This document shows, piece by piece, positions 1 through 17,605 of a stretch of DNA of 25,176 nt. Source of the DNA: an uncultured Oscillospiraceae bacterium. GTDB taxonomy: Bacteria > Bacillota > Clostridia > Peptostreptococcales > Anaerovoracaceae. The stretch covers positions 1 to 25,176 of the forward strand of contig CAZKCB010000002.1 of the NCBI GenBank assembly GCA_964550965.1. The letters run 5' to 3'. The translations under genes were made by a program, and so were the position numbers. Position 1 is the first letter of the stretch. Each line of letters opens with the position of its first letter. The notes under the pieces were generated by a model. That model saw only the letters and a list, made by a program, of their open reading frames with translations. It did not search any database and was not told the origin of the DNA.

Positions 1-80
1 GGCGGCGAGCGCCACTTACGGGTCGGATCTCTTCTAGTCCGGTTCAGGGGCGTCGGCAACGCAGAACGTTATGCGAAATT
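1..80 (+). repeat. attC-like site 0 (right half only, cut by window edge)
   Basis: GTCCGGTTC at 37-45 (also at 1284 and 2326), then CGTCGGCAACGCAGAAC and core GTTATGCGAAATT at 68-80, directly upstream of an ORF. Confidence 0.75.
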
Positions 81-102
81 CTTTATGAAAGGTTGAGACA
101 CA

Positions 103-939
103 TTGAACCAATACTGTATTAAAACCTCTGAAAAACAGGTAGTTGCATGCTCGCAAATGCGCATTTCGTTTGAACCTAAAGGGACTCAGATGGATTTCAG
201 AAACGAAATGAGAAAAGCCATCTCAGAATTAAGACTTGGAAATAATGAGATAGCAATTGCATCCTTCTGCACAACCGAAAATGCATTCTTCGATGTTGAA
301 AATATTCTGGTGTATAACATAGGGCCAAATACATTTGCCACAATTAGCAAGAATGGGATTCATGTTGTGAAAAGCAATGAAACAATAGATGCTGGTTTTA
401 GCAATAAGTATGAGTACCTTATTGCTGACAAGAAAAAGACACTTTCAGAACTGGAAATAAAAAAGAGCAACGCATTTTTGCAGTTCCAATTTACCTTGAA
501 GAAGTTCAACACTGCATTGAAACCGAGTGATTATTGGCTGGCTTTCCATGATGGTAACACAGAAATTGAAAACCATGAAACAAAAAAGTTTTTTGGGGTT
601 TTCATAGATGTGCATCTGCCAAATGAATGTGGAAATATAGTGAGCATGATGAAGCCGATGATTGATGGGATCATTTCCGGGATGCATTCAGAAAATCTGA
701 AAGACGGAGATGCTGAGATCAGACTGTCTAAAATCCTTAATGTACCAAATGAAAGAATTACGGAGTTATTGTACAGGAAAGATTTTTCAATTTTAGGTGA
801 GCGGAATTTGATAAGTGCCTATAGAGATGGCCTGAAATGGAACCCAGAAGACGAGAGATGCATTGAAATTACAATAATTCCTCATGAAAATAAATCAATT
901 GAAAGAGCAGAAGTAAAAGGTTACGTTTATTGGCTGTAA
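103..939 (+). CDS. Hypothetical protein, cassette-borne (278 aa; start uncertain, TTG 103 or ATG 157)
   Basis: Long AT-rich ORF bounded by GTTATGCGAAATT (68-80) and AACTTCGCATAAC (952-964). No family confidently recognised. Confidence 0.8.
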   Translation: MNQYCIKTSEKQVVACSQMRISFEPKGTQMDFRNEMRKAISELRLGNNEIAIASFCTTENAFFDVENILVYNIGPNTFATISKNGIHVVKSNETIDAGFSNKYEYLIADKKKTLSELEIKKSNAFLQFQFTLKKFNTALKPSDYWLAFHDGNTEIENHETKKFFGVFIDVHLPNECGNIVSMMKPMIDGIISGMHSENLKDGDAEIRLSKILNVPNERITELLYRKDFSILGERNLISAYRDGLKWNPEDERCIEITIIPHENKSIERAEVKGYVYWL

Positions 940-951
940 GTCACGGCTAAG

Positions 952-1028
952 AACTTCGCATAACAATGCATCTGCCGCAAGGGTTTCGGGCATCTCTGGG
1001 GCGGACTACGACGGTCCACACCCCTTCG
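952..1028 (+). repeat. attC-like site 1 (left part, truncated)
   Basis: Inverse core AACTTCGCATAAC 12 nt after the stop. Left arm TAACAATGCATCTGCCG can pair with the site-0-type right arm CGGCAACGCAGAACGTTA. Internal GGAC/GTCC hairpin followed by CACACCCC as in sites 2 and 3. GC-rich sequence stops abruptly near 1028. Confidence 0.7.
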
Positions 1029-1151
1029 TCAAGGAAAGATCTAGGTCAAATAGTTGAATATGGTATTTTTCAAAAAAACAAAGTAGGAAAAAAGTATGTA
1101 TATTCATTGAAAGAAATTGTTTCTGTGATATCAAGTTTGAATAAGAATTAA
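1029..1151 (+). pseudogene. 3' remnant of a gene ending in a winged-helix-like C-terminus
   Basis: Reads SRKDLGQIVEYGIFQKNKVGKKYVYSLKEIVSVISSLNKN-stop, AT-rich, followed immediately by an inverse core. The RKDL..LV..G...K.K.G..YVY pattern resembles wHTH tails such as those on Fic-family proteins (inference). Confidence 0.5.
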
Positions 1152-1154
1152 CGG

Positions 1155-1316
1155 CATATAACAAAGCACTCACGCTGACGGCTCGTTCAGCAAAGTTTGT
1201 GCTTGGGCTGCCGATTTCTAACAGCGTTGGGCAGCCACACGCCCTCACCGGGTGCAAGCACCGCTCTGAGGCAAGTCTTTCGGGTCCGGTTCGGGTGGCG
1301 TCGGCAATGCGAATTT
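1155..1316 (+). repeat. attC-like site 2 (GTTA core apparently deleted)
   Basis: CATATAAC then AAAGCACTCACGCTGACGGC, identical to sites 3 and 6. GGCTGCC/GGCAGCC hairpin at 1206-1236, GTCCGGTTC at 1284. Ends GGCAATGCGAATT versus GGCAACGCAGAACGTTATGCGAAATT in site 0. Confidence 0.8.
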
Positions 1317-1339
1317 GTTCATGAAAAGGGGGCATTCAA

Positions 1340-2182
1340 ATGAAAAAAGACCAATACTTGCAAACCCCAGTCGTTACAGAATTTATAGAATGGCTTATTA
1401 AACACATTGATGAAGACCTATTCACACATACCTATATTCAGAAACGGCCTAAAGGCAATGTTTGGAGATGCAATTCTATTTACAATGCCTTTGAAAACTA
1501 CAAATGGAGATTCAATTGTACCCTCCCAAATGGAAAGACTATTTCAGGAGATACATACAGAGAGTGTGAAGAAATACTGACAAACATTTCGTCAGGTTTA
1601 ATAAATGCTTTAGAACAAGGGAATCAATCACTGCTCAAGGCATATTGCATATCCACTTTACAATGGGGCGGAGTACTAAGGAGCAATAAAGAGAAAATTG
1701 AAAACATGGAAAATGCATTAGAGTACTTTTCTTCAACAACGTGTGCGCTGGATCCATACACGGTTTCATTGTCTGATACGTTTGAAGGAATTTTAATGAA
1801 TTCAGGATTCACAAAGATTTACTCTTTGATGATTAAAGATTTTATTATTTATGACGGACGTCTAGGAGCTGCTCTCGGGCTGCTTGTAAGAAAGTATCTT
1901 GAAGAAAACAATATTAATACAGTTCCAAGTGAACTGAAATTTGCATACGGTAATCCAAAGACCAATAGTTATGATAAGGATGAACTTTCAAAGCGGAATC
2001 CCAGCAAAGATGGCTACAAGTTCCCTTTGTTAACCAATAATAGTAAGCTCCATGTTGTAAATAATTTGAGAGCTAATTGGATTGTTTTTGAAGCAGCAAA
2101 ACAAAGTAAATTTTCAACACATAATAGTCCAATGAGAGCATTAGAATCTGCATTATTTATGATCGGTTATGATATCAGGTAG
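1340..2182 (+). CDS. Conserved-looking hypothetical protein, possibly HhH/DNA-glycosylase-like fold, cassette-borne
   Basis: 280 aa, RBS AAAGGGGG. Motifs WGGV, NSGFTKIYSL, IYDGRLGAALG, LESALFMIGY. Fold assignment is from pattern recall only. Confidence 0.8.
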   Translation: MKKDQYLQTPVVTEFIEWLIKHIDEDLFTHTYIQKRPKGNVWRCNSIYNAFENYKWRFNCTLPNGKTISGDTYRECEEILTNISSGLINALEQGNQSLLKAYCISTLQWGGVLRSNKEKIENMENALEYFSSTTCALDPYTVSLSDTFEGILMNSGFTKIYSLMIKDFIIYDGRLGAALGLLVRKYLEENNINTVPSELKFAYGNPKTNSYDKDELSKRNPSKDGYKFPLLTNNSKLHVVNNLRANWIVFEAAKQSKFSTHNSPMRALESALFMIGYDIR

Positions 2183-2189
2183 TACCAAC

Positions 2190-2369
2190 GACTTCGCCTA
2201 ACAAAGCACTCACGCTGACGGCCCGTTCCACAGAGTTCGTGCCTGGGCTGCCAGTTTTCTGACACGGTTGGGCAGCCACACCCCATCACCGGGTGCAACC
2301 ACATTCAAGATGCTCTGGCTATGGGGTCCGGTTCAGTGACGTTGTGAACACAGCGGCGTTATATGAAAT
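2190..2369 (+). repeat. attC-like site 3 (complete, about 165 bp core to core)
   Basis: GACTTCGCCTAAC (2190-2202), TCAC box, internal hairpins, GTCCGGTTC (2326), GTGA box, GTTATATGAAAT (2358-2369). The first 24 nt from TAAC are identical to sites 2 and 6. Confidence 0.85.
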
Positions 2370-2437
2370 CATACGCAAAGACTGCGCGCCGCTCTGGCGC
2401 GGAAGCCATGTTAGTTATGTAAGATTGAGGTGAGACA

Positions 2438-3043
2438 ATGAATGCAAAAGAGGAACAATCAAGAAAAGCATATAACAAAATAGCGGAGAACTATAATGAC
2501 TCATTTGATGGGCGGTTCACACGCTTATTCAAAGATGAGCTGGTTTCAAGAGTGATTCTTAAGCAGAATGATGCAGTACTGGATGTTGCCTGCGGAACAG
2601 GTGAACTGTTAGACCGCCTTTATCATAAATGTCCTATTAAAGGAGTTGGGGTAGATATATCAGATAAAATGATAAAGGTAGCAAAATTGCAGTACAGTAA
2701 ATTTGATTTTATTGTATCAAGCTGTGCACCGCTTCCCTTTGATGATAACTCATTCGATGTATTAACAGTATCCGCAGCTTTTCATCACTTTCCGGAGCCT
2801 GGAGAGTTTGCAAAAGAAGCACACCGTGTTCTAAAGTATGGAGGGAAAATATACATAGCAGAAGTGAATTACCCTACACCAATACGTCAAATCGTTAATT
2901 CTATCATTTTACCGTTATATAATGCGGGTGATGTTAAGATATACCACGCAAAGGAGCTAGTTGAAATATTTAAAAAGGCTAATTTTAACCTTCTATCAGT
3001 TGCCCAAAAGGGAAAAGTGCAGCTACTGAACGCCACCAAATGA
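2438..3043 (+). CDS. Class I SAM-dependent methyltransferase (UbiE-like / Methyltransf_11)
   Basis: Motif I VLDVACGTG, GVDISDKM, LPFDDNSFD, AFHHF..P..F..E..RVLK.GG. RBS GAGGTG. Confidence 0.9.
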   Translation: MNAKEEQSRKAYNKIAENYNDSFDGRFTRLFKDELVSRVILKQNDAVLDVACGTGELLDRLYHKCPIKGVGVDISDKMIKVAKLQYSKFDFIVSSCAPLPFDDNSFDVLTVSAAFHHFPEPGEFAKEAHRVLKYGGKIYIAEVNYPTPIRQIVNSIILPLYNAGDVKIYHAKELVEIFKKANFNLLSVAQKGKVQLLNATK

Positions 3044-3169
3044 GTAAAAACAAATAATAGTTATTCATTTTGCTGTTCGAATGGACCATATCTTTCCCCT
3101 AGATTTACAGTGCCGCAGTCCATGGCCGCCACGTAGTGTGGCGGAAGAAACAAGGAGGGTAGAAGAACC

Positions 3170-3778
3170 ATGAAGAAAAATATTTTGATAAGTACGCTTT
3201 TTATGATAATTATAGTGATTGCTTTTTCTTCGTGTACGAATAAAGAAAATGAGTCAAACGATAGTAACATATATGAATACATTCCTTATGGGCAATTGCC
3301 TGAAGACTATAATGTAGAAGACGCAAAATCGGATGGATGTGTCGTATTTGAGGATCTTCAGCTTACTTCCGGAGATGAAGCTTGGAAACAATTCTTAGAA
3401 ACCGCACAAGCTGGCAAAGCGGCAAGTGTTCGTCTTGCGAACTATTATACGTTAGACGCTCAGAATATATCAGAAGAGTATTATGCGGAAGTAAAAGACG
3501 AATATCCCGTTTTATATGTACAGGATTTAAGCTTTGACGGCGAGAACTATCGCTTATATTATACCGAGGGCGAAAAAGAATATGAATACAAATACCCATA
3601 TTTAGTAAAATTCACAGGCCCTCCCAACAGTAGTACCGCAACATACAGCCAATATGAAAGATATTTTTTGGTAAGGGATAAGTCAGTTACTTTTGAGCAA
3701 ATTCAAATAGGTTGGTTAAGCAGTTACACGGGAAATCAAGTGGATTGTGTTGCGGTCTATACGGATTTAAAAAAATAA
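3170..3778 (+). CDS. Hypothetical lipoprotein
   Basis: MKK + hydrophobic stretch + lipobox-like FSSC. Strong RBS AAGGAGGG. Confidence 0.8.
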   Translation: MKKNILISTLFMIIIVIAFSSCTNKENESNDSNIYEYIPYGQLPEDYNVEDAKSDGCVVFEDLQLTSGDEAWKQFLETAQAGKAASVRLANYYTLDAQNISEEYYAEVKDEYPVLYVQDLSFDGENYRLYYTEGEKEYEYKYPYLVKFTGPPNSSTATYSQYERYFLVRDKSVTFEQIQIGWLSSYTGNQVDCVAVYTDLKK

Positions 3779-3840
3779 GAGGGTTGCATTTAAAGCTATG
3801 GCGCCACGTCCTGTGGCGCTTAGTAAAAAGGAGATAGATC

Positions 3841-3985
3841 CATCTTATAACAAAGCACTCTGACGGCACGTTCAACAAGGTTCGTGCCGGAGCTGCTGAT
3901 TTTTCTCTTGCTCAAAAGCAGCCAAAGTACTTGTGAAGACGGCTGCATATATGCCTTGCTTCGAAATGGTGAGTAGTGTTATTAA
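3841..3985 (+). repeat. attC-like site 4 (divergent)
   Basis: CATCTTATAAC AAAGCACTC-TGACGGC (4-nt deletion versus sites 2/3). Hairpins GGCACG/CGTGCC (3865-3888) and GCTGCT/AGCAGC (3892-3922). Candidate right end GTGAGTAGTGTTATT (3969-3983). Confidence 0.65.
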
Positions 3986-4025
3986 GCAAAATGCGCCATA
4001 AATTGTGGCGAATAGGGGATTAAAA

Positions 4026-4109
4026 ATGTATGGTGCAGCAGGTGGCGGTTCTTGCTCCCGCAATATACTGGGGTGTGATGGGGATTCAGCATTTGACACA
4101 AAAATCTAA
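4026..4109 (+). CDS. Possible 27-aa small ORF or gene remnant (MYGAAGGGSCSRNILGCDGDSAFDTKI)
   Basis: ATG preceded by AGGGGA, immediately after site 4 and a leader hairpin. No family recognised. Confidence 0.25.
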   Translation: MYGAAGGGSCSRNILGCDGDSAFDTKI

Positions 4110-4130
4110 AGGTGATTCTGGAGGAATTTT

Positions 4131-4895
4131 ATGAAAATAATTACAATTGATAGAAACAACATTGATCAAGAGCATATTTGCTGCGCCATTGGAAATGACA
4201 AACCAAATCAAAACAGAGCTCAAACAAAAAAGGATTGGATGAAAAATGAATTTGATAATGGGCTTGTATTTAAACGATTTGACCAGAGAGGCAAGTTGTT
4301 TATTGAATATACTCCCATTGAAAATATCTGGAAACCAATAAAAGGGAAAAACTATATGGCCATTAATTGCTTGTGGGTTTCGGGGCAATTTAAGGGAAAG
4401 GGATTATCGACGCAATTACTTGATCGTTGCATTGAAGATGCAAAGTTAAAGGAAAAAGACGGAATCGTTGTCGTCAGTAGCGATAAAGTCAAACCATTTT
4501 TGACAGATAAAAAATTCTATTTGAAACATGGATTTGAAATTGCAGATACTGCCCCACCGTATTTTGAATTGCTGGTTTTGAAATTCAATGAGAAAGCTGA
4601 GAATCCAACATTTTCAGACAATGCCAAAAGTGGGACATGCATAAATAAGAATGGATTTACCTTTATCTACTCAAATCAATGCCCTTTCATGGAGGAATAT
4701 GTAGCGATCTTATCTGAGGTCACCAAAAGAAATGAAATAGCATTTGAGACGATCAAGCTGCAGAATTTCAAAGAAGCGCAAGAAATGGGAAGTCCATTTG
4801 GGACACTTGGAATTTATTTCAATGGTGAATTTCAAACCCATGAATTGATGTCGGAAAAGAAATTCGAGAAATATATTGAAAGATACAGAAAATAG
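4131..4895 (+). CDS. yoaP: GNAT N-acetyltransferase with YoaP domain
   Basis: N-terminal EHICCA, INCLWVSGQFKGKG (acetyl-CoA loop), QCPF, C-terminal F.THE. RBS GGAGG. Confidence 0.85.
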   Translation: MKIITIDRNNIDQEHICCAIGNDKPNQNRAQTKKDWMKNEFDNGLVFKRFDQRGKLFIEYTPIENIWKPIKGKNYMAINCLWVSGQFKGKGLSTQLLDRCIEDAKLKEKDGIVVVSSDKVKPFLTDKKFYLKHGFEIADTAPPYFELLVLKFNEKAENPTFSDNAKSGTCINKNGFTFIYSNQCPFMEEYVAILSEVTKRNEIAFETIKLQNFKEAQEMGSPFGTLGIYFNGEFQTHELMSEKKFEKYIERYRK

Positions 4896-4913
4896 AGAGT
4901 AGTAACTATTCAA

Positions 4914-4952
4914 CAGCGCATAACAGTGGCTCTGCCCCTGTGGATCTGCGGT
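4914..4952 (+). repeat. attC-like site 5 (short left-arm stub)
   Basis: CAGCGCATAAC 18 nt after the yoaP stop, followed by AGTGGCTCTGCCCC. Interrupted by site 6. Confidence 0.45.
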
Positions 4953-5000
4953 AATTCGCCTAACAAAGCACTCACGCTGACGGCTCGTTCATCAAGGTTT
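4953..5000 (+). repeat. attC-like site 6 (left part, truncated; right end of array)
   Basis: AATTCGCCTAAC. 31 nt from TAAC (4961-4991) are identical to site 2. Continues TCAAGGTT, like site 4. Confidence 0.75.
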
Positions 5001-5975
5001 TGGACGAATGACAAATATTTTTTCGTAAAACGCTCCATCCTTATAGAAGGTCGCGACACAAACATTCCTTCCGTAAACATCGCTTTCCACACAAGCAACC
5101 CTTGTGCCGGAATTGCGTCCTTGCCACATTCCATTTTCTTCTTTGACGTCAACGTACTCGATGTATTTTGAAAGCTCCTTGTACAGGTCATCTGCAATAA
5201 ACTCATCTACGTAGTAATAATTATCAAAATAACCGCCTTGTTTGAATTCACACTCGGAAGGATTTAATGACAGAAGAAACTCCTTGATCGCTTTGTCTCC
5301 AAAAGCAGTCTCAGTATCGTCTCTTTTGAGGAGAGTAGTAACGCCGTCCTCTTTTTTGTATGGCAAATCAGCTTCCGTTTTAATGCGTTCCAACAATGTA
5401 CCGTCTGTGTTTTTTATTTTCATAGACAGTGCATCGTTTGAAATTAAAGCAACATCGGCACGGAGAAACTGATGGCTACCCGTGGCGTATTCTCCTGCTG
5501 TTATACCGATTTTGTCAGATAGCTCCCAAGCCTTGTTCCACGAGAAGTCCCCCTCACTATCCTTGTAACCGAGAGCACGGAGAACAAGCGTAAGATACTG
5601 CGTTGCCGTAACCGTAGCGTCCCCGCTGAAAGTTGTTGCGCTTGTCCCGGCTGTCAGGCCGTTTGAATAGGAATAGCCGACATAAGGCTTTGCCCAATCG
5701 GGAACATCGGTAAAGGGCGTCGTCCATGTTCCGGCCTTTGCTTCCTCATCCTTGCCCAAAAGCCGCACAAGCATTGTTACAGATTCTGCGCGGGTGGGCG
5801 CACGGCCAAGGTCATAAATGGGTTTGCCGTTTGCGTCAGTGCCTGCTCCGCTAAACAAGCCCAGAGCGTTCAGCGCATCTGCCGCTTCGGTTGCTTTGCT
5901 GCTGGCTGCAAATGCAGATGGAACCATAAAAGAAACCATGATCAGTACAAAAAAAAAGGAAATTGCTCTCTTCAT
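4992..5975 (-). CDS. S-layer homology (SLH) domain surface protein
   Basis: Signal peptide ending AFA. SLH-type motifs TRAESVTMLVRLLG, PFTDVPDWAKPYVGY..NGLT.G, LRADVA. RBS AGGAGGGG. Confidence 0.85.
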   Translation of the reverse strand: MKRAISFFFVLIMVSFMVPSAFAASSKATEAADALNALGLFSGAGTDANGKPIYDLGRAPTRAESVTMLVRLLGKDEEAKAGTWTTPFTDVPDWAKPYVGYSYSNGLTAGTSATTFSGDATVTATQYLTLVLRALGYKDSEGDFSWNKAWELSDKIGITAGEYATGSHQFLRADVALISNDALSMKIKNTDGTLLERIKTEADLPYKKEDGVTTLLKRDDTETAFGDKAIKEFLLSLNPSECEFKQGGYFDNYYYVDEFIADDLYKELSKYIEYVDVKEENGMWQGRNSGTRVACVESDVYGRNVCVATFYKDGAFYEKIFVIRPKP

Positions 5976-6147
5976 TGAGTCCCCTCCTATATAGATAATA
6001 GCTCATTTAATTATTCTACTGCAAACTTTTCCAAATTTCAATTATCGCAGGTTTTATTTCTCTTTAGACTTTTTTTGATAAATGAACTTGAAGAAAAAAG
6101 CAAGTTTGCATTAAGCAAGAAAATGGATACAAATCGTATCAAAATTA

Positions 6148-6194
6148 AAAGCCGGGTTCAAGTGCATTAACCTAATGCATTTGAACCCGGCTTT
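6148..6194. terminator. Long hairpin, probable terminator of the usp gene
   Basis: 22-bp inverted repeat AAAGCCGGGTTCAAGTGCATTA / TAATGCATTTGAACCCGGCTTT, 1 wobble, 3-nt loop, 10 nt beyond the usp stop. Confidence 0.8.
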
Positions 6195-6204
6195 ATCAGA
6201 TCAT

Positions 6205-6639
6205 TTATCGGACGATCAGTGTGGGTAAGTTTATTGCTAAGGTAACTCGCCGTGAAACGCTTCCGATTGCTCCACGTATTCCTCCCATACCACTTGAGCC
6301 CATAATCACAAAATCAAAATCACTGTTTTCCAGATATTCAATTATTTTATCTGCAGGATTTCCGGTCAAAAGCTTTGTCTCAACAACTCCGCTAAAGCTG
6401 CATAACTTATTAGCAGCATCTTCTAAAATCTTTGATCCAAGTAAGCGTTTTTCTGTTGTGATGTTATGGACCAATTCCGGTGAGAATTGATATGGATTTG
6501 TGGCATAGCTACTTTCTTCTACGTCAATAACATAGAGGACCGTAATTTTGCTGTCAAAGGCCGTCGCCATTTCCTGTGCCATTTCAAGAGCCTTTGATGA
6601 ATTCAATGAACCGTCGATGGGAACCAGAATTTTTTTCAT
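6205..6639 (-). CDS. Universal stress protein (Usp family)
   Basis: MKKILVPIDGS start with RBS GGAGGG; G.PAD.I, D.VIMGSSG.GG..G.IGSVS..V......P.LIVR. Confidence 0.9.
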   Translation of the reverse strand: MKKILVPIDGSLNSSKALEMAQEMATAFDSKITVLYVIDVEESSYATNPYQFSPELVHNITTEKRLLGSKILEDAANKLCSFSGVVETKLLTGNPADKIIEYLENSDFDFVIMGSSGMGGIRGAIGSVSRRVTLAINLPTLIVR

Positions 6640-8619: not shown

Positions 8620-8652
8620 GAGAAATACCTCCTTTGACCGCTCTAAATGTAT

Positions 8653-8680
8653 ATTATACACCGAATTTGCATAACGACAA
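8653..8680 (-). promoter_or_regulatory. Candidate sigma-A promoter for the araC gene
   Basis: Minus strand TTGTCG-N16-TATAAT, 33 nt upstream of the GTG. Confidence 0.5.
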
Positions 8681-8712
8681 CAAGACAATTAGAAAAATTA
8701 GCAAGTCAGTTC

Positions 8713-8741
8713 TTGTCTTCTACTCCCTCAAATTATATGAT
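8713..8741 (+). promoter_or_regulatory. Candidate sigma-A promoter for the GRE operon
   Basis: TTGTCT (8713-8718)-N17-TATGAT (8736-8741), 40 nt before the ATG at 8782. Confidence 0.55.
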
Positions 8742-8781
8742 AAACGGAATCAAGCGGTTGAAAAACCAGAAGGAGGACCAA

Positions 8782-11154
8782 ATGCTAACATCGAGAGTTC
8801 AGAAAATGCGGGAAAAGCTTTTCAACACGATTCCAACAATCACAGCAGAGAGACTGGTCCTGGCAACGGAAGCCTATCAGAAATTTGCCGGTGATGCGGT
8901 TCCTATTTTCAGAGCCAAGGTGGTCAACTACATCATGGAGAACATGACAACACTGATCATGGATGATGAACTGATCGTAGGAACAGCAACAAATGCATAT
9001 CGTGGTTCCAATCTGCATCCCGAATTTCAGTCAAGTTCATGGTATCTCAGTGATATTGACGAATTTTCAAGCAGAAGCAAGGACCCCTGCAATATTTCCC
9101 CGGAAGACAAAGCGACGATCGTAGAAACGCTCAAGTACTGGGAAGGGAAGTCCATGGAAGACCTGGCAGAGATCATAATGCCGGCATCCATTCGCGAACT
9201 CCAAAAAGACGACGTTATTTGCGTAGGCCTTCAGAATGGTGTCTCAGGGGAAACGACCTGCGATCACGAAAAGATCCTGACGGTAGGAATCAGAGGGTAC
9301 ATCGAAGAGTGCCAAAGAAACATCGAGAACACCCTTCCTCAGACCATGGAGGATCAAGCTAAGGTGGATTTTTGGAAGGCTTGCATCATCCAGAGCGAAG
9401 GCCTGATCACATACGCGCATAGAATGGCAGACGAAGCCGAAAGAATGGCAAAAGAATGCACAGACACGAAAAGAAAGCAGGAGCTTCTTACGATTGCAGA
9501 AAACTGCAGGATCATTCCGGAAAACCCACCGCAGAGTTTTCAGCAGGCGCTTCAGACCGTCTGGTTCGTGCATGTCTATTTCTACATTGAAGTTTGCACT
9601 ACTGCATGCGGATTCGGCAGATTTGACCAGTACATGTGGCCATTCTACAAAAAGGACGTGATCGACGAGAAGAACATCACAAGAGAAGAAGCCTTGGAAA
9701 TGCTGGAATGCTGTTATCTCAAGGCTTGTGAAGTATATGAAGTAAGAGACAACTGGTATGCAACCGCATTCGCAGGTTATCCCATGTGGCAGATCCTTGT
9801 TGTGGGCGGACAGACGAGAGACGGTAAAGATGCATCAAATGACTTATCGTTCCTCTGTCTGGAAGCAGCAGATGAGCTCCGAACAACACAGCCTGTCATG
9901 GCACTGCGGGTCTTTCCCGAAACGCCGCACGAACTGATCGAGTTCGGCTGCAAGATGATTCAGGAAGGTCAGGCAAACCCGGGATTTTTTAACGATGAAA
10001 CCGCAATCAAGATGGCTCTTGGCAAGGGAGGCACTTTAGAAGAAGCACGAGACTGGACCATCGTTGGCTGTATTCAGGCAGGACCTGGGGGCGGCGGAAC
10101 AGATGGTTCCCCTGATGCCGGATACGTTAACATGGGCAAGATGATCGAGTTCGTTCTGCATAACGGCCTTGACCCTGTTACAGGAAAGCTCATGGGGCTC
10201 GAAACCGGAGACCCCAGAGAATTCAAGAACATCGAAGAATTCAAGGATGCGCTCAAAAAGCAGATCATCCATCATTACGATCTCATCAGGATCGGCTACA
10301 ACCTGATGCAGAGCAACCACATGAATCGTTACCCTGTCATCTTCGCATCGATGGTAACCAGAGGCTGCGTGGAAAGCGGCAGATCCGTACAGAACGGTGG
10401 AGCACAGTACTCGACAGCTGGCATGTACGTTACAGGGGCAGCGAACCTTGCAGACTCCATCGCAGCAGTAGAAAAGTGTGTATTCGAGGATCAGGACCTG
10501 ACAATGGATGAACTGATCAAGGCCTGCGACACAAACTTCGAAGGACAGGAAAGAGTACGCCAGCTTCTGCTGAATAAACCCGGAAAATACGGGAACAACC
10601 AGGACCACGTTGATAGCATCTACAAGGAAATGATGCACCATATTGCGAATATGGTTCAGGGCTGGAATGACGCCAGAGGCGGACATTACAGTTTTGGAAT
10701 CGACTCACAGACGATGAATATTCCACATGGTGCCGTTACAGGCGCACTCCCGGATGGAAGGCTTGCAGGCGAATCATTTTGCGATGCTGCTTCTCCAATG
10801 ATGGGCAGAGACATCAACGGCCCGACTGCTACCGTTAAGTCGGTTGGCGGCATTGGACAGGAAGTATTACAGGAAGGTGCACTGTTCAACCTGCGCTTTG
10901 ATCCGAAGGGGGTTCAGGGAGAAAGCGGGCGGAATATTATCGGAGGCGTGATCAAGACATTCTTCGAAGATGGCGGCGAACATATACAGATCAATGTTGT
11001 AGACAATGAAACCCTCAAAAAGGCACAGGAAAAACCTGAGAACTACAAGGGGCTCATGGTTCGTGTAGCAGGATACATGGCATACTTCACAGAACTGGAT
11101 AAGAGCGCCCAGGATGTAATTATCAACAGAACTGCGCACTTATCGCAGAATTAG
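8782..11154 (+). CDS. Glycyl radical enzyme (PFL2/dehydratase-like superfamily), substrate unknown (790 aa)
   Basis: ATG 8782 with AGGAGG. Glycyl loop RVAGY (11062-11076), thiyl loop GCIQ (10066-10077), GRFDQY and AFAGYPMWQ.L.VGG; adjacent activase. Confidence 0.92.
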   Translation: MLTSRVQKMREKLFNTIPTITAERLVLATEAYQKFAGDAVPIFRAKVVNYIMENMTTLIMDDELIVGTATNAYRGSNLHPEFQSSSWYLSDIDEFSSRSKDPCNISPEDKATIVETLKYWEGKSMEDLAEIIMPASIRELQKDDVICVGLQNGVSGETTCDHEKILTVGIRGYIEECQRNIENTLPQTMEDQAKVDFWKACIIQSEGLITYAHRMADEAERMAKECTDTKRKQELLTIAENCRIIPENPPQSFQQALQTVWFVHVYFYIEVCTTACGFGRFDQYMWPFYKKDVIDEKNITREEALEMLECCYLKACEVYEVRDNWYATAFAGYPMWQILVVGGQTRDGKDASNDLSFLCLEAADELRTTQPVMALRVFPETPHELIEFGCKMIQEGQANPGFFNDETAIKMALGKGGTLEEARDWTIVGCIQAGPGGGGTDGSPDAGYVNMGKMIEFVLHNGLDPVTGKLMGLETGDPREFKNIEEFKDALKKQIIHHYDLIRIGYNLMQSNHMNRYPVIFASMVTRGCVESGRSVQNGGAQYSTAGMYVTGAANLADSIAAVEKCVFEDQDLTMDELIKACDTNFEGQERVRQLLLNKPGKYGNNQDHVDSIYKEMMHHIANMVQGWNDARGGHYSFGIDSQTMNIPHGAVTGALPDGRLAGESFCDAASPMMGRDINGPTATVKSVGGIGQEVLQEGALFNLRFDPKGVQGESGRNIIGGVIKTFFEDGGEHIQINVVDNETLKKAQEKPENYKGLMVRVAGYMAYFTELDKSAQDVIINRTAHLSQN

Positions 11155-11174: not shown

Positions 11175-12110
11175 ATGAGTAATATGCCTGAAAGCGTTCT
11201 TGTGGGAAACCTTCAGAAATTCTCTATAGAAGACGGTCCCGGCATCAGAACGACGGTATTCCTGAAGGGCTGCCCACTCAGCTGTAAGTGGTGTCACAAT
11301 CCTGAGTTGATCGACCCGAAGCAGCAGCTGATCAAGTCACCAAACAACTGCATCGGATGTGGATACTGCATCAGGATATGCCCAAAGGCTGCATTGACGC
11401 TGGACCCGGAAGCGGAAGTAGTCATTGACAGATCCAAATGCGATGTGTGCCTCAAGTGTGCAGATGAGTGCTACGCAAAAGGTTAAAGACCTGTAGCTAA
11501 GCCAATGACCATCGATGAAATACTTGACATCGCGGGGCAGGATAAAGGCTTCTATAATAACACAGGGGGCGGCATTACCGTCAGCGGAGGAGAAATCCTC
11601 ATGCACGTAGGGTTTGTCAGCAAGCTCATCGAGGAAGCGGGAAAACGAGGCATCAACGTGTGTCTGGATACCTGTGGCTTCGGAGATTCAAGGGCGCTTA
11701 TGGAAATGGCGCTAGCGGAAAACGTCACGAACATTCTTTATGATATGAAGTCAATTGACGACGAAGTTCACAGAGAGTACACGGGAGTGAGTAATCAGCT
11801 GATCCTTGACAACCTGAGAATGCTCGCAGCAGATGCAAAAACTTTGGATAAGCTGATCATGAGAATGCCTCTCATCAAGGGCGTGAATGACAGCGACGAC
11901 ATCATTAAGCACACGGGCGAGCTTTACAGAGAAATCGGAGTGAAACGACTGGATCTGCTCCCATATCACAGCCTTGGCATCAGCAAGGAAAGAAATGTGG
12001 GTGGCACACAGGAGGAACTCGAACCGCCGACCGAAGAGCGTCTGAAAGAAATAGAACTGTATTTCAGAAATGAAATGGATTTGAATGTGGGAATAATGGG
12101 TCAATTATAA
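11175..12110 (+). pseudogene. GRE-activating radical SAM enzyme with ferredoxin-like insert, split by one in-frame TAA at 11484-11486
   Basis: GPGIRTTVFLKGCPLSCKWCHNPE (CX3CX2C), two CX2CX2CX3C clusters, SGGE, DTCG, RMPLI, LLPYH. Both ORF halves share one frame. True pseudogene versus base-call error unresolved. Confidence 0.85.
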
Positions 12111-12147: not shown

Positions 12148-13560
12148 ATGGACGGGACTAATTTAGGAATCATCACCTTAATTCCGGCACTGGGCTTCTT
12201 AGTATTCGCTCTGGTGACTAAGAAGTGTATTCTGAGTATCATGTTATCTGGTATACTCGGGTACATCTTTTACTACAAAGCAGGGTTCTTCATGCCAACG
12301 ATCGACGCATTGCTCGCGGCATCGACCGATGGGGACAACAACTATATCGTAATCATTTGTTTGCTGTTCGGGTGCTTCGTACAGCTGCTCAGACAGTCAA
12401 AGGGAGCTGTGGCAATATGTGACATAGCCAGAAAGTACATTAAGACAGAAAAACAAGTACTGCTGATGACGTGGATCTGCGGAGTGATCATATTCATCGA
12501 TGACTACCTCAGCATCCTGGTTACCGCAAATTGTACACTTCCCCTTGCGGATGAACACAAGGTGCCCAGAGAAATGATGTGCTACATCATCAATACAACC
12601 TCGGCTCCGGTTTGTCTGATCATACCGATTTCCGCATGGGTCGTATTCTTCTCGGGAATCTTTGGGCAACAGAAAGAGGCAGCAGTAGTTGGTGACAGTG
12701 CAATGAGCATTTATTACCATATCATGCCATACTTCTTCTATCCGTTCCTTTGTGTATTCTTCGTGCTCTTCGTCATTCTGGGAGTCGTTCCGAAAATGGG
12801 CGGCATTAAGAAAGCCTACCAGAGAGTTGCCGAAACCGGACAGCTTTGGCCGCCGTCCAGCAACATGCAAAACCAGGGCGATGAACTGGGTGACGTAATG
12901 GGGGCCATCTCGGATTGTAATGCAAAGGAAGAAAAAGAAGTAAAACCGCATCTTTGGGCGTTCCTCGTGCCGATGGCAGTGGTGATCATCTCAACATTAT
13001 GGCTGGACGATATCCTTTATGGAGTCAGCCTGGGAATTTTCTCTTGTTTCGTTTTGTTTGTTCCCACCAGGATTATGAGTCTTGGCAAGTTCTGCGATGC
13101 CTGCTATAAGGGTCTTGAAGATATGCTATTTATCGCAGTTGTGCTTGTTACATCCTTATTCTATCGGGAATCCATCAACCTGATCGGCTTGCCTGACTAT
13201 CTGATTACTGTTGCAGGACCCTATATGAGTGCAGAATGGCTTCCTGCGATCTCCTTCCTGCTCATTGGTCTTGTATGCTTTGCAACCGGAAATATCTGGA
13301 GTATCCCTGCGGTATGTACCCCAATCATTTTACCGCTGGCTGCTGCAAGCGGTGCAAGCATTCCACTCACACTCGGAGCCATTATTTCAGCGGCCTGCTT
13401 TGGTGCACAGGCTTGCTTCTACTCGGACGTAACGCTGTTGTCGGCTTCAGCATGCAAAATCAATAACGTAGATTATGCGGTTGCACAGTTGCCATACATA
13501 GGAATTGTCACCGCAATATCATTCATCGGCTATGTGGTCTTTGGATTCGCATTGTCGTAA
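12148..13560 (+). CDS. NhaC-family (Na+/H+ antiporter-like) solute transporter
   Basis: 470 aa, many TM segments, IFIDDYLSIL motif, GN.WS, Q...YSDVT.LSA. RBS GAGGAAGG. Confidence 0.8.
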   Translation: MDGTNLGIITLIPALGFLVFALVTKKCILSIMLSGILGYIFYYKAGFFMPTIDALLAASTDGDNNYIVIICLLFGCFVQLLRQSKGAVAICDIARKYIKTEKQVLLMTWICGVIIFIDDYLSILVTANCTLPLADEHKVPREMMCYIINTTSAPVCLIIPISAWVVFFSGIFGQQKEAAVVGDSAMSIYYHIMPYFFYPFLCVFFVLFVILGVVPKMGGIKKAYQRVAETGQLWPPSSNMQNQGDELGDVMGAISDCNAKEEKEVKPHLWAFLVPMAVVIISTLWLDDILYGVSLGIFSCFVLFVPTRIMSLGKFCDACYKGLEDMLFIAVVLVTSLFYRESINLIGLPDYLITVAGPYMSAEWLPAISFLLIGLVCFATGNIWSIPAVCTPIILPLAAASGASIPLTLGAIISAACFGAQACFYSDVTLLSASACKINNVDYAVAQLPYIGIVTAISFIGYVVFGFALS

Positions 13561-13594
13561 ATAACAACGGCAGCTACACTGCAAATAAAAAACA

Positions 13595-13651
13595 CCCTAA
13601 CCTACGAACAACTCCAGATTTATAGTCTGGAGTTGTTTGTACGTTTTAGGG
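13595..13651 (+). terminator. Probable terminator of the GRE operon
   Basis: TACGAACAACTCCAGA / TCTGGAGTTGTTTGTA 16-bp stem (13603-13641) inside an outer CCCTAA/TTAGGG pair. Confidence 0.75.
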
Positions 13652-13675
13652 GAGAAAAAAAACAAATGGAGCTAT

Positions 13676-13704
13676 TTGTATTTGAATATATAAACTGGTA
13701 CAAT
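13676..13704 (+). promoter_or_regulatory. Candidate sigma-A promoter for the downstream gene run
   Basis: TTGTAT-N17-TACAAT with extended -10 TG at 13696-13697. Confidence 0.6.
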
Positions 13705-13780
13705 GGAGTAATTAAGACCAAATATTAGGCGGGAAATTAAAAATACTGGGAGAAGAAGCCCTGAACGGTTGGGAAGAATT

Positions 13781-14182
13781 ATGGAAAGAACAAAAATAAA
13801 TTATAATAATATAGAGGATTACCTTCTGAATTTTCCACAGGATGTACAGGCAAAGCTTAGAGCGATGAGAGCGACTATCGTTGCAGCAGCTCCTGATGCA
13901 GTAGAAAAAATCAGTTACCAGATGCCGACCTTTGTATTGGAAGGAAATCTGGTTCACTTTGCAGCATTTAAGAACCATATAGGTTTTTATCCGACGCCGA
14001 GTGCAATCGTAGAATTTTGTGAGCAATTAAAAGCTTATAAATGCTCAAAAGGGGCAATTCAATTTCCTTTGGATATGCCTTTGCCACTTGAACTGATAGA
14101 GCAAATTGTAAAATTTAGAGTTGGGGAAAACCTCAAAAAACATGAAGAAAAAACAGGAAAATCGAAAAGAAGGAACACATGA
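13781..14182 (+). CDS. DUF1801 / YdhG-like (iron-chaperone-like) protein
   Basis: AAPDAVEKISYQMPTF, LVHFAAFKNHIGFYP, KGAIQFP.D.PLP. ATG 13781 preferred over TTG 13769. Confidence 0.85.
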   Translation: MERTKINYNNIEDYLLNFPQDVQAKLRAMRATIVAAAPDAVEKISYQMPTFVLEGNLVHFAAFKNHIGFYPTPSAIVEFCEQLKAYKCSKGAIQFPLDMPLPLELIEQIVKFRVGENLKKHEEKTGKSKRRNT

Positions 14183-14994
14183 AAATCATGAAACCTCTTG
14201 AAAGAAGTAGATTAAGAATACTGTGCGGGAGAACCTGTTATACTGTATTGAGATACTTTGAATGGCATTTCAGTGATAAGAGATATTCAAAAATGAAGGG
14301 GAAAGAAATACTCCCGCATGTTATTTTTTCGCACGAAACGCCACTGTTTCGTGAATTGAAAAACGTGGATATGTGGCTGCAAGATAATAAAATCAATAAC
14401 CTTAAAATTGCAGTGGAAAGAGTAAACGGAATACTTATACATCCTGGAGAAACCTTTTCATATTGGAAACTGATCGGAAATCCAACAGCACGAAAAGGAT
14501 ACATGAAGGGCATGGTTTTATTCTATGGCGGCTTTAAGGCAGGTACGGGCGGCGGCTTATGCCAGCTATCGAATTTGATCTATTGGATGACAATACATAC
14601 TCCATTGAACGTGACTGAAAGACATAGACACAGCTATGATGTTTTTCCGGATTCAAATCGGACGCAACCTTTTGGCAGCGGAGCAACCTGTGTATATAAC
14701 TATAGAGATTTACAAATACGCAATGATACAAACCAAACATATCAATTGCAGCTACAAGTAACAGATAAAGACCTTTGCGGAGAGTGGAGAAGCACAGAAG
14801 AGCAAGAAAGTAAATTTGAAATATATGAGAAGGAACACAGAATAACACACGAATGGTGGGGCGGGTACATACGCCACAATCTTCTTCACAGGAAAGAATA
14901 TGACTCGGAGGGTGCATTGGTTGCAGATGCATATTTGACAGAGAACCACGCCATTATGATGTATCAGCCATTTTTAAGTGATGGCAAAGAGTAA
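14179..14994 (+). CDS. vanW: VanW-family protein
   Basis: NK..NL..A...NG..I.PGETFS, GGGLCQLSNL, ERH.HS, DLQIRNDT. ATGA overlap with the upstream gene. Family-level call only. Confidence 0.85.
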   Translation: MKIMKPLERSRLRILCGRTCYTVLRYFEWHFSDKRYSKMKGKEILPHVIFSHETPLFRELKNVDMWLQDNKINNLKIAVERVNGILIHPGETFSYWKLIGNPTARKGYMKGMVLFYGGFKAGTGGGLCQLSNLIYWMTIHTPLNVTERHRHSYDVFPDSNRTQPFGSGATCVYNYRDLQIRNDTNQTYQLQLQVTDKDLCGEWRSTEEQESKFEIYEKEHRITHEWWGGYIRHNLLHRKEYDSEGALVADAYLTENHAIMMYQPFLSDGKE

Positions 14995-15055
14995 CTTGGT
15001 CTTCATTTGTTATTGGATTTTTCAATTACCTATTTAAAGATGGAGGTTATTCCAA

Positions 15056-15841
15056 ATGCTTGAAGTAAAGAAAAATGAAATGTGCAATATCGCAGATTTA
15101 TTTAAAGGTTTTGAGGATTCTATGGTAATTGCTTGTCTTCAAGGATATATGGGCAGAGCATATGTTGACAGGCTATCAGATCCGACGATTGCGATGATAG
15201 TAAGTGGAGAATATAGTTTTTTTGCTGGGAATGCAAAAATGGAAGCGGCCAAAGCATTAGTAGAAAATATCTTTGAGTATATCGGGGAAGCTTCTACTGT
15301 AGCCATATACGCAGATGATAATTTGGAGTGGAGAGATCTCCTGCTATCAGTGCCTGAGAATAATCCGGTAGAAGTTGCCAGATACGGCATAGTCCAAAAG
15401 GACTATGAATTTAATATATATGCATTGAATAATTTTATTGATTCAATGCCTGAAGGTTATGAATTAAAGAGATTCGATAAACAGATATATGAACAGGCTA
15501 TGAGTGAGACCTGGTCTAAGGAGTTTTGCGAAACCTTCGATTCGGTAGAAGATTACTTGGAAAAGGGATTTGGATTTGGCGCATTATATCAGGGGAAGTT
15601 GGTTGCTGGCGCTTCAACAATGACGGTTTATGATGGCGGAATTGAAGTTCAAGTTGCAACAAAAGACGAATTTCAACGTAAAGGTTTAGCAATGCCTTGT
15701 GCGTCAGCGCTATTACTCGAATGTATGTATAGAAAAATTCGGCCTTGCTGGGATGCGGCCACATTGATTTCTAAGCATATGGCTTTGAAATTAGGATATG
15801 AATACAAGGGAGAGTATTCTACAGTGCATATGCGTATTTGA
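15056..15841 (+). CDS. GNAT family acetyltransferase (GNAT_acetyltran-like)
   Basis: G.GFG..Y.GK.VAGAS, IEV.VAT...FQRKGLA, P.WDA....S..MA.KLGY. RBS GGAGG. Confidence 0.85.
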   Translation: MLEVKKNEMCNIADLFKGFEDSMVIACLQGYMGRAYVDRLSDPTIAMIVSGEYSFFAGNAKMEAAKALVENIFEYIGEASTVAIYADDNLEWRDLLLSVPENNPVEVARYGIVQKDYEFNIYALNNFIDSMPEGYELKRFDKQIYEQAMSETWSKEFCETFDSVEDYLEKGFGFGALYQGKLVAGASTMTVYDGGIEVQVATKDEFQRKGLAMPCASALLLECMYRKIRPCWDAATLISKHMALKLGYEYKGEYSTVHMRI

Positions 15842-15898
15842 TGTTGGCAATATATATTTACAGTTCGACGCAAAGGCGCCACAAAACGGAGGGAAAAT

Positions 15899-16522
15899 AT
15901 GGAAATTATAATCAAGCCGCTCACGGCGGAGCTTACCGCAGATTACTTCGACTTCCTTGATAAACGCGCATTTACCGATAATTCTCCGTGGGGTGGGTGT
16001 TATTGTACCGGTTGGCAGATGACAAAGGCAGAAGAAAAAATCCAATTACTCGACCAAATGGAAGAAGGCTTTGCATATGGCGACAAAAACTTTATACGCG
16101 TACTTCGTGAAATCGGCACGCGACAAATCAAAGCGAAAGCTTTACGGGGATATTTAGCATATGTTGATGGCGTGTCGATCGGTTGGTGCAACGCGAACGA
16201 TAAAGCCAGTTTCCCGGCCGAATCTGCGAACGGATTTCGGCTGTATGCTCCCGCCGAAAAGCGGGAAAAAGCGGTCGTTTGCTTTGAAATCGCTCCAGAG
16301 TATCGAGGGAAAGGCGTTGCCACCGCTTTGCTGAACAGAGTAGTGAGCGATGCAAAAGCCGAAGGGTATGTTGCCATAGAAGGTTTTCCTCAAGTGCACG
16401 ACGAAAGGTTCGAATGGGACTATACCGGACCTGTTTCCTTGTATGAGAAAGTGGGATTTACTGCAATGACTAAGCTAGACGGCAGCATTATTATGAGAAA
16501 AGAATTAAAATCGGATAAGTAA
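15899..16522 (+). CDS. GNAT family acetyltransferase
   Basis: W.GCYC, GYLAY.DG..IGWCNA, VCF.IAPEYRGKGVA..LL, IEGFP, YTGP..LYEK.GF. RBS GGAGGG. Confidence 0.88.
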   Translation: MEIIIKPLTAELTADYFDFLDKRAFTDNSPWGGCYCTGWQMTKAEEKIQLLDQMEEGFAYGDKNFIRVLREIGTRQIKAKALRGYLAYVDGVSIGWCNANDKASFPAESANGFRLYAPAEKREKAVVCFEIAPEYRGKGVATALLNRVVSDAKAEGYVAIEGFPQVHDERFEWDYTGPVSLYEKVGFTAMTKLDGSIIMRKELKSDK

Positions 16523-16554
16523 AAATACAATACAAAAGAGAGGTATATGGGAAT

Positions 16555-17250
16555 ATGAAAACGATTGGATTGATTGGCGGAATGAGTTGGGAATCCTCAG
16601 CGGAATACTATCGAATTCTAAATCAACTGGCCAAAAAAGCATTGGGGGATATGCATTCCTGCAAGTGCATCATGTACTCCGTTGAGTTTGGCGAAATTGA
16701 AGCACTGCAACGCAAAGGAGATTGGGAAAAATTAACATCCATAATGCTTGATGTGGCGCAGAAGTTGGAGAAAGCAGGAGCAGAATTTGTAGTGATCTGC
16801 ACCAATACAATGCACCTGATGGCTCCGGAAGTCCAGGCAGGCATAGGGGTTCCGGTGCTGCACATCGCTGATGCCGCTGCAGAAGAGATCAAGAGGCAGG
16901 GATTGAAGAAAGTCGGGCTGTTGGGAACCCGGTTCACCATGGAAAAGGATTTCTAAAAGGGCAGAATAGCAGAGAAACATGGGAAAGAAGTAAACGTTCC
17001 CCGCGAAAAAGAATAAACGACCATAACAAAAGTAAAACAAAAATAATAGTAAAAAAAGTTTGTAAAAACAGAAAAAAAAAATCAGTATAAAGAAGTGATC
17101 CAAAGACTCTTGGATAATGGGGCAGAAGGCATCATTCTCGGATGCACAGAAATCCCGATGCTGATCAAGCAAGCGGATGTCGCTGTACCCATTTTTGACA
17201 CAACAGCCATACACGCAGAATACGCTATGGAATACGCGCTCAAGGAATGA
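16555..17250 (+). pseudogene. Aspartate/glutamate racemase family gene (231-codon frame) with 5 in-frame stops in an A-rich patch
   Basis: MKTIGLIGGMSWESS, ICTNTMH, GLLGTRFTM and, in the same frame, GAEGIILGCTEIP..PIFDTT.IHA. Stops at 16954, 17014, 17044, 17047, 17050. Confidence 0.85.
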
Positions 17251-17266
17251 AAGGAGATTTAGATCA

Positions 17267-17335
17267 ATGGATTGGCACAATCTTAAACTACAAGATAAGA
17301 CTTGTGTCTGCAATATGATCCAAAATCAGTTTTAA
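17267..17335 (+). CDS. Possible 22-aa small ORF or remnant (MDWHNLKLQDKTCVCNMIQNQF)
   Basis: ATG with AAGGAG RBS directly after the racemase stop. No family recognised. Confidence 0.25.
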   Translation: MDWHNLKLQDKTCVCNMIQNQF

Positions 17336-17582: not shown

Positions 17583-17605
17583 ATCATTTAAAAAGGAGAG
17601 TTTCA

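Follow-up and report, generated by a model that had tools for sequence, protein, structure and literature searches.

Does the run of GC-rich repeats at the left end of a Clostridia-type contig belong to a gene-capture system of the integron kind, and if so, which enzyme works it? The stretch concerned, referred to here as the window, comprises 25,176 nucleotides and constitutes contig C2 of a metagenome-assembled genome (MAG) that consists of 380 contigs, totals 2.25 Mb and is 78% complete. A first-pass annotation had read positions 1-5000 as a Gram-positive cassette capture system, or as a remnant resembling a cluster of attC sites lacking integron integrases (CALIN), with a recombinase encoded outside the window. 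The results presented here indicate that these positions are probably the distal, decaying end of a chromosomal cassette array that works like an integron, and that the family of tyrosine recombinases associated with such arrays is likely to build them by site-specific recombination at the repeats.

Repeats of the window and a linked recombinase

All seven full or partial copies of the repeat that the annotation had placed in positions 1-5000 were present, at coordinates that were exact or a few bases off, and inspection of the sites, together with folds, bore out that they begin with ..TAAC, end in GTTA.. and have inner boxes that pair. Long copies were 83-90% alike, and the core-to-core length, put beforehand at about 165 bp, was 168-169 nt. 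One correction applied to the annotation's description; within the window, both ends of a site were intact only at site 4. As described, the repeats followed the stops of co-oriented, unrelated, AT-rich genes, five in number, and lay on the coding strand throughout. In an nhmmer search of the whole MAG, the repeat was confined to contigs C2, C236 and C272, where it always shared the coding strand with its neighbouring genes and came directly after their stops, and each of these three contigs breaks inside a repeat. An Rfam scan of window positions 1-6500 at E values up to 10 gave no match at the repeats, so that identity with a known non-coding RNA family, a test set in advance, was not found. 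With seven sites or remnants in 5 kb and no recombinase in a survey of open reading frames (ORFs) across the 25 kb, the window taken alone has the composition of a CALIN, i.e., at least two attC sites separated by under 4 kb and lacking a neighbouring integrase; the attC calls were structural and did not come from IntegronFinder or its covariance model.

The likely recombinase was found on C236. Read as its reverse complement, this contig encodes a 360-aa tyrosine recombinase, followed by a spacer of 190 nt that contains dyad repeats and ends in GCAGTAGTTATATG, a cassette with a gene like that of uracil-DNA glycosylase, an intact repeat, a glyoxalase cassette and a further repeat, with the recombinase co-oriented with the cassettes. 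On contig C272 there are two cassettes, one encoding a Shedu (SduA) nuclease and the other a PDC-S01 ATPase, with a repeat after each. A 73%-identical recombinase, the attI-like site GTAGTTAT and 11 long repeats within 10 kb were noted together on a 49-kb metagenome contig (L124), and recombinase and repeat family are therefore physically linked despite the split assembly of the MAG. Since intact sites lie near the recombinase (C236, C272) and defective ones in the window, positions 1-5000 of the latter are read as the decaying distal end of the array and, with most of their sites inactivated, as a remnant.

Two rearrangements were also seen in L124. An insertion sequence (IS) of the rve family (13077-14550) was inserted exactly at the R' end of a site (..GTGAATGCGGAA to one side, TGCAGTAGTC.. 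to the other), and an attI-proximal unit without an ORF was duplicated (11379-11565 and 13077-13257).

Site structure and cassette boundaries

Intact copies folded, in either strand, into an R box (..ATAAC/GTTAT..), an asymmetric unpaired spacer, its left side 3 nt and its right side 5-6 nt long, an L box of 9 bp (GCACTCACG/CGTGAGTGC) beyond which the left arm has extra bases, and a branched inner part in which the motifs CCACAC.., CACCGGG and GGTCCGGTTC pair mutually. When this MAG was compared with L019, the two being Clostridia lineages with this site type, compensatory changes were found at 12 of 36 pairs, including three L-box pairs and several inner pairs; the inner part was conserved in sequence between distant arrays. 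On the chromosome of Desulfitobacterium sp. Sab5, 12 sites of 75-129 nt within 10 kb kept ATAAC...AACGTTAT, and their stems differed in sequence with complementarity retained. In these sites, 95.7% of cells were paired and 9 pairs showed compensatory changes, whereas none of 500 shuffles reached the observed level and slid controls paired at 31-41%. The parts of an attC site (R''/R' and L''/L' boxes, unpaired spacer, variable inner part, structure conserved over sequence) were accordingly all present, in sites that ranged across systems from 67 to 185 nt, and a conserved structure with drifting sequence is the pattern of attC sites.

In integrons, the crossover takes place between G and TT of R'. 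What follows GTT is therefore part of the next cassette and is complementary to the R'' of that same cassette. Contiguous complements of at least 8 nt between R' of one site and R'' of the next were noted at 44.6% of 65 junctions downstream of related recombinases, as opposed to 13.8% for R' and R'' of the same site and 2.6% for random pairs. The complement extended over 10 nt at three of the seven junctions of this MAG; one of these is in the window, where GTTATGCGAA at the 5' end of cassette 1 (68-77) is the exact complement of TTCGCATAAC before the AAC of site 2 (955-964). Complements in L019 and L124 reached 15-20 nt. A duplicated cassette in Flavobacterium saccharophilum, the copies of which were 99% identical, was bounded exactly by AACGTTA at both ends of each copy, with different upstream sites. 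The junctions of these arrays thus follow the cassette-boundary rule of integrons.

Association with related recombinases in other genomes

Of the more than 575 relatives of the recombinase present in species-representative genomes, 80 were retrieved; their phyla were Bacillota, Bacteroidota, Nitrospirota, Spirochaetota, the candidate phyla radiation (CPR) and DPANN/Altiarchaeota. Flanking DNA was searched with a simple, tolerant attC scanner oriented by spacer asymmetry, a strict, strand-blind scanner (perfect stem of at least 8 bp) having missed both full window sites because of their degenerate right arms. AttC-like sites occurred at 0.36/kb downstream on the recombinase strand compared with 0.07-0.11/kb in three control compartments, a 3-5x difference, and two or more were present at 20 of the 29 loci with at least 3 kb of downstream DNA. 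Many contigs stopped within 300 nt downstream of the recombinase gene yet kept 10 kb on its other side, which is what assemblies broken at repeats would give. A common attI-like layout was evident at the 15 loci examined (this MAG and 14 relatives), where two or three dyads were followed by (A/T)AGTTA(T/G) 100-130 nt past the stop. The corresponding putative attI site of this MAG, dyad repeats and then the same GTAGTTAT as in L124, lay about 110 nt after the recombinase.

Within the taxonomic family, the recombinase was found in one of 80 other genomes, that of a member of the same genus (75% identity). It shared the attC (88%) with this MAG and had two long sites; the flanking genes were unrelated, and no cassette was common to both. 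The annotation's test of variation between relatives thus came out in its favour, cassette content being wholly different in the only same-genus genome with the system. The cassettes were co-oriented, mostly single-gene, functionally unrelated and variable, and the system is an accessory trait of patchy distribution.

On a plasmid of Chryseobacterium sp. SNU WT5 (L095, NZ_CP041688.1 7035-26042), the recombinase gene was followed by co-oriented small genes, and genes for a transposase of the IS110 family and for the reverse transcriptase of a group II intron are annotated inside this run on the opposite strand. Elements of both types are known to insert at attC sites in classical integrons. Nine attC-like sites of 115-186 nt, about 380 nt apart, were noted in Fusibacter sp. 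3D3 (L047 11397-14889) as tandem cassettes without ORFs, the DNA from one site to the next having scarcely any coding content or none.

Relationship of the recombinase to integron integrases

The recombinase is not a canonical IntI. Its score on TIGR02249 was 219.6 bits against a cut-off of 265, with a two-piece match in which model positions 170-237 were skipped, and where IntI has 70 residues the recombinase has 28 in comparison with VchIntIA. Relative to IntI1, 41 residues were missing from the recombinase and from all 27 aligned relatives (28 of 28 family members). The IntI-specific additional domain (I2 helix), by which integrons are recognized, in practice through TIGR02249 or the intI_Cterm profile of IntegronFinder, is thus lacking, and the system is for this reason not a canonical integron. 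The C-terminal ..SPLD tail, in contrast, is common to the recombinase and IntI, whereas Xer proteins of the host end in ..HPR.

In a maximum-likelihood tree, IntI, the recombinase family and a short family formed a clade apart from Xer with 100/100 support. By this placement, the integron integrases have their closest sister group in the family of this recombinase. Four canonical IntIs fell inside the recombinase family, beside an archaeal member, and none of 200 bootstrap trees showed the recombinase family as a single clade. Nesting of IntI within the family is not claimed, since a sister relation was not rejected by the approximately unbiased test (p = 0.128); the family may nonetheless be the group from which IntI arose. 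At least 7,642 clusters in the protein database were recovered at E ≤ 1e-40 under names such as XerD, 'phage integrase' and 'site-specific tyrosine recombinase/integron integrase', none with a characterized name.

The short family in this tree consists of IntI-like proteins of 285-310 aa (L110, L112, L113, L114 and several contigs of Fusibacter sp. 3D3, G003) with neither a HARP-like domain nor an I2 insertion and with the tail ..IKSPL. These proteins formed a clade of their own inside the group of IntI and the recombinase family, and were multi-copy in some Bacillota genomes.

N-terminal domain and proposed mechanism

Residues 1-67 of the recombinase were conserved across its family (F.Y......IK.I.G.RW....K.W..P) and were modelled as five strands and two helices with a predicted local distance difference test score of about 88-94. 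The HARP domain is described as a determinant of fork-reversal function and as a five-stranded sheet packed on two helices (PMC4666394). Matches to PF07443 (HARP) were found in 11 of 28 relatives, with a best E value of 5.8e-6; the top match of a profile of the domain among PDB sequences was SMARCAL1 HARP 4o66 (E = 9.6e-4); and Foldseek returned 4o66 at a probability of 0.63 and a template-modelling score of 0.42, alongside XPB and Mfd domains, with no match below E = 0.1. These three lines, weak but independent, converge on a HARP-like identity for the predicted domain.

A cassette consists of a gene, sometimes two or none, and an imperfect-palindrome site after it. In the mechanism proposed, the array is most likely built and shuffled by the tyrosine recombinase encoded at its head, here that on C236. 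Exchange would occur within AAC|GTTA, so that each cassette 5' end complements the left end of its own site. Recombination would use a folded single strand, in the recognition of which the HARP-like domain, the fold of which binds branched DNA in SMARCAL1, may replace I2. The system may still be active in this organism, though most window sites are dead.

A wider proposal combines several of these steps, namely that I2 is dispensable for integron-type capture, that the HARP-like domain reads the folded site, and that IntI is a derived branch in which HARP was lost and I2 gained. Its range would take in an I2-less HARP family of at least 7,600 clusters running attC arrays in Bacillota, Bacteroidota, Nitrospirota, Spirochaetota, CPR and DPANN archaea. 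This combination is put forward tentatively, as its chance of being correct in full is judged slightly below even.

Alternative explanations

The best surviving alternative is that of an ordinary CALIN, the cassettes of which were made by a canonical IntI, with the insert-less recombinase incidental. Such an IntI would lie in the 22% of the MAG that is not assembled, or would have acted in trans or in an earlier host. The MAG is indeed only 78% complete, CALINs are common and occur in Firmicutes (PMC9024848), and IntI1 can recombine archaeal attCs (PMC9668308). Canonical IntIs also exist in the phylum, in 2 of 401 genomes, as compared with insert-less two-piece matches in ORFs of at least about 340 aa in roughly 16-20 (counted from the table of matches). 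No match over the TIGR02249 cut-off was found, however, in the MAG itself or in five genomes with arrays, of which two or more are complete chromosomes. Arrays in dozens of genomes from different phyla have the insert-less recombinase at their head, in every case co-oriented and accompanied by an attI-like site that is conserved. An ordinary CALIN is therefore considered unlikely. Of the genomes with canonical IntI, one closed genome (G448; L106, L123) has two such genes, which scored 482 and 382 bits on TIGR02249.

Slightly less likely again is a module system of the Xer/dif type (cf. pdif modules of Acinetobacter plasmids), in which the sites would be recognized by sequence as double strands and no strand would fold. 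The best NCBIfam model for the recombinase was of the XerA type (NF040815, 246 bits against a cut-off of 220), and it lacks I2; the R-box core AACGTTA is conserved in sequence, and the dyad repeats of the attI-like site are typical of double-stranded sites. The attC-like sites, on the other hand, have lengths far from the 28 nt of dif-like sites (11-6-11), asymmetric spacers and stems that covary while their sequence drifts, and each cassette carries its own R' complement. Nor does the protein resemble a Xer resolvase, the product of a housekeeping gene with a 28-bp dif, in its relationships or distribution; it grouped with IntI and not with Xer of the same genomes, Xer of the MAG is encoded by a different gene, on C38, and the recombinase gene is accessory, as noted from its rarity in the taxonomic family.

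Least credible are non-recombining intergenic elements spread between genes (repetitive extragenic palindromes or miniature inverted-repeat transposable elements, terminators, regulatory RNAs), which would explain why the repeats are GC-rich, highly structured and intergenic, with an inner part conserved between distant arrays and small GC hairpins alongside, but not why copies stand in arrays on three contigs instead of being dispersed, match nothing in Rfam, show cassette-specific end complementarity and a duplication cut exactly at AACGTTA, and are tightly tied to one recombinase family.

A site-specific cassette array of integron type is thus the preferred reading, and the two possibilities offered at the outset, a Gram-positive capture system or a CALIN-like remnant, are supported by the placement of repeats at stop codons, the linked recombinase, the variable cassettes and the lack of an Rfam match. 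Likeness to an integron was upheld for site anatomy, cassette boundaries and linkage; it did not fully extend to the enzyme, which lacks the IntI insertion and is co-oriented with the cassettes, or to the state of the window's sites, which are mostly inactivated.

Several points weigh against the preferred reading. The recombinase of the MAG (C236) and the window are on separate contigs of an incomplete bin and are tied only by the shared repeat family, and chimeric joins from assembly through repeats may have occurred at low coverage. Most window sites are deleted, chimeric or truncated, and the local array may be a fossil. Recombination is deduced from sequence, in contigs of 2-4x depth only, and the attC scanner was crude and designed after sites had been seen. 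With respect to the N-terminal domain, the match of the MAG protein itself to HARP was under the Pfam cut-off (14 bits compared with 25; E = 0.038). Finally, IntI1 loses its activity when I2 is deleted (Messier and Roy 2001, as cited in PMC7790495), and an insert-less enzyme acting on folded sites would consequently need a different mode of recognition, such as that suggested above.

Host and metagenome

The annotation's assignment to a Clostridia host received indirect support from the name of a protein of the same-genus relative ('Eubacteriales bacterium') and from elongation factor G, the identity of which was highest to Desulfitobacterium (63%) and Fusibacter (60%) and lower to Paenibacillus (57%) and two Bacteroidota (54-55%), a pattern that fits such a host.

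The window was present at 2-4x depth in two rock-metagenome runs (Logan contigs). Word depth for the 40-nt left arm of site 2 (952-997) was 115-167 in metagenome runs, one of which is without the host. The arm was located there between GC-rich flanks of many kinds, in contigs from other organisms of higher abundance. This site type is thus common to other members of the community. The alternative joints 78>954 and 79>2191, also noted in metagenome contigs, may be from arrays of other organisms and were not counted as evidence of excision.

Features of the window and related loci

Coordinates of sites, cassette genes and the flanking gene are listed in Table 1.

Table 1. Sites, cassettes and flanking gene in the array region of the window
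Feature	Position	Strand	Description
Site 1	1-74	+	3' part of a long attC-like site; R' GTTATGC 68-74; contig start falls inside the repeat
Cassette 1	69-964	+	ORF 103-939, 278 aa, no family
Site 2	958-~1030	+	GCATAAC left end; other attC type with CCACACCCC core motif; no right arm (internally deleted)
Cassette remnant	1040-1151	+	3' end of a reading frame alone, stop 1149-1151; probable, from layout
Site 3	1156-~1316	+	Long attC-like site, ATATAAC left end, full body; nhmmer 121 bits
Cassette ORF	1340-2182	+	280 aa, no family
Site 4	2196-2364	+	Complete, 169 nt; R'' GCCTAAC 2196-2202, R' GTTATAT 2358-2364; 120.7 bits
Cassette gene	2438-3043	+	Class I S-adenosylmethionine-dependent methyltransferase, PF08241, E = 3e-24
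Second gene of methyltransferase cassette	3170-3778	+	Putative lipoprotein, no family
Site 5	3845-3984	+	Degenerate long site; left arm recognizable, possible R' GTTATTA 3978-3984; nhmmer E = 1.5e-4
Cassette gene	4131-4895	+	GNAT acetyltransferase, YoaP-like C-terminus
Site 6	4918-~4947	+	Fragment of about 30 nt, site-2 type (GCATAAC...)
Site 7	4948-~5000	+	Left arm of a long site only (GCCTAAC...), 95% over 40 nt; truncated, array end
Flanking gene	4992-5975	-	SLH-domain protein; convergent with the array; stop codon inside the site-7 remnant

Profile positions 93-163 were matched at site 1 in the nhmmer search, and window bases 1-55 were identical to positions 1256-1310 of C272 (reverse complement), part of a repeat copy on that contig. 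Compared with site 1, site 3 has a deletion of 12 nt that removed its R' (..CGCAGAACGTTA), as seen by comparing ..CGGCAACGCAGAACGTTATGCGAAATT of site 1 (54-80) with ..CGGCAA-TGCGAATTT of site 3, and the right inner (L) arm of site 4 is degenerate by four transitions. The convergent ORF that flanks the array was tried as a candidate integrase and rejected on the identity of its product.

Small GC-rich hairpins were noted in cassette leaders or between ORF and site at window positions 2385-2402, 3113-3145, 3797-3822 and 3990-4012, and hairpins of the same kind were present on C236 (reverse complement, 2679-2702), at nine places in L016, and in L019, L029 and L124. Many had the loop GTCC(A/G)T, e.g., GGTTGCCGTCCATGGCAACC. 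Hairpins with this loop occurred at 0.039/kb downstream of recombinases and at 0.006-0.011/kb in controls, with 9 of the 11 downstream matches coming from one Desulfitobacterium array.

The SduA protein of C272 (L006:1782-2744:-; PADLOC E = 5.8e-129) was 320 aa long and apparently shortened at its C-terminus, and the PDC-S01 protein (L004:140-1405:-) was a candidate-defence ATPase with AAA_14 and DUF4143.

Further along the window, 13 tightly packed, co-oriented small accessory genes with cargo types typical of integrons were found at 13769-22279. This run includes genes for DUF1801, VanW, four GNATs, a racemase fragment, PNPOx, a glyoxalase/bleomycin-resistance-like protein, a GyrI-like/Cass2 'integron-associated effector binding protein' and Imm5-like immunity. 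A search for attC-like sites between the genes of this run found none, and the run could be the fossil of an array or an accessory cluster of unrelated origin. Positions 8647-11154 and 11175-12110 hold a glycyl-radical enzyme with its activase, which is split into a ferredoxin-like ORF and a radical-SAM ORF, and an NhaC-type transporter.

Significance and comparison with known systems

Integrons are held to be nearly absent from Firmicutes, and IntegronFinder 2.0 identified one complete integron and a few CALINs in that group (PMC9024848). A survey of Archaea reported 539 attCs compared with six IntIs, all defined by the IntI-specific domain (PMC9668308). Gain of I2 by a Xer-like ancestor has been regarded as the key innovation in the origin of integron integrases, with intermediates lacking (Escudero et al. 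2020; PMC7790495), and the insertion has been described as 'not fully conserved' in an integron-like subgroup (Smyshlyaev et al. 2021; PMC8138268). Text searches of the literature gave no description of insert-less integrases heading attC arrays or of a HARP-recombinase fusion. The present findings suggest that the closest relatives of IntI are already coupled to attC-like arrays without I2, and that surveys based on IntI probably undercount capture platforms, with their defence systems and other adaptive cargo, in Gram-positives, Bacteroidota, CPR and Archaea. If capture is independent of I2, integrons in the functional sense would be far more widespread than such surveys report. Organisms that carry the system include cultivable ones whose genomes are closed, such as Desulfitobacterium sp. 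Sab5, Paenibacillus sp. FA6 and Flavobacterium saccharophilum DSM 1811, which makes both the origin of the integron integrase and the mechanism of folded-site recognition directly testable.

Among known systems, the sedentary chromosomal integrons, above all the 'inverted integrase' group (e.g., Treponema denticola), offer the closest likeness, with a recombinase at the head of co-oriented, mostly single-gene cassettes. Their sites are likewise imperfect palindromes with RYYYAAC/GTTRRRY-like ends, an unpaired spacer, an L box and a variable inner part, occur in taxon-specific attC types, and recombine by crossover between G and TT, each cassette carrying its own R' remainder. Cargo is also shared, in the form of GNATs, glyoxalases, toxin-antitoxin pairs and defence genes (Shedu and PDC-S01 here), as are insertions of IS and group II introns in the arrays. 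In contrast with these integrons, the present recombinase lacks the I2-containing insertion, fails the TIGR02249 cut-off and has a predicted HARP-like N-terminal domain, which no IntI has; the Clostridia sites, at 160-185 nt, have a branched core conserved in sequence, and co-orientation of the recombinase with the cassettes leaves no divergent Pc/Pint arrangement.

The window by itself, as an attC-like cluster without a nearby integrase, resembles the CALINs of IntegronFinder, which include examples from Firmicutes and Archaea. It differs from them in that a recombinase is linked to the array, though one outside IntegronFinder's definition of IntI. As such recombinases would not be recognized under that definition, many 'CALINs' outside Proteobacteria may be complete systems.

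With Xer recombinases (XerC/D and archaeal XerA) and the pdif/IMEX modules, the enzyme shares a simple core of two domains, which matches Xer in size and lacks the IntI insertion, as reflected in its best NCBIfam model. It differs in not being housekeeping, in the absence of a dif-like 28-bp site, in the SPLD as opposed to HPR tail, in the extra N-terminal domain and in its separate clade. The predicted fold of that domain and its consistent, albeit weak, profile and structure matches resemble HARP of SMARCAL1 and T4 UvsW, where the domain is borne by a superfamily 2 motor as opposed to the tyrosine recombinase found here; the likeness, known in the present case from predicted structure and sequence, has modest support.

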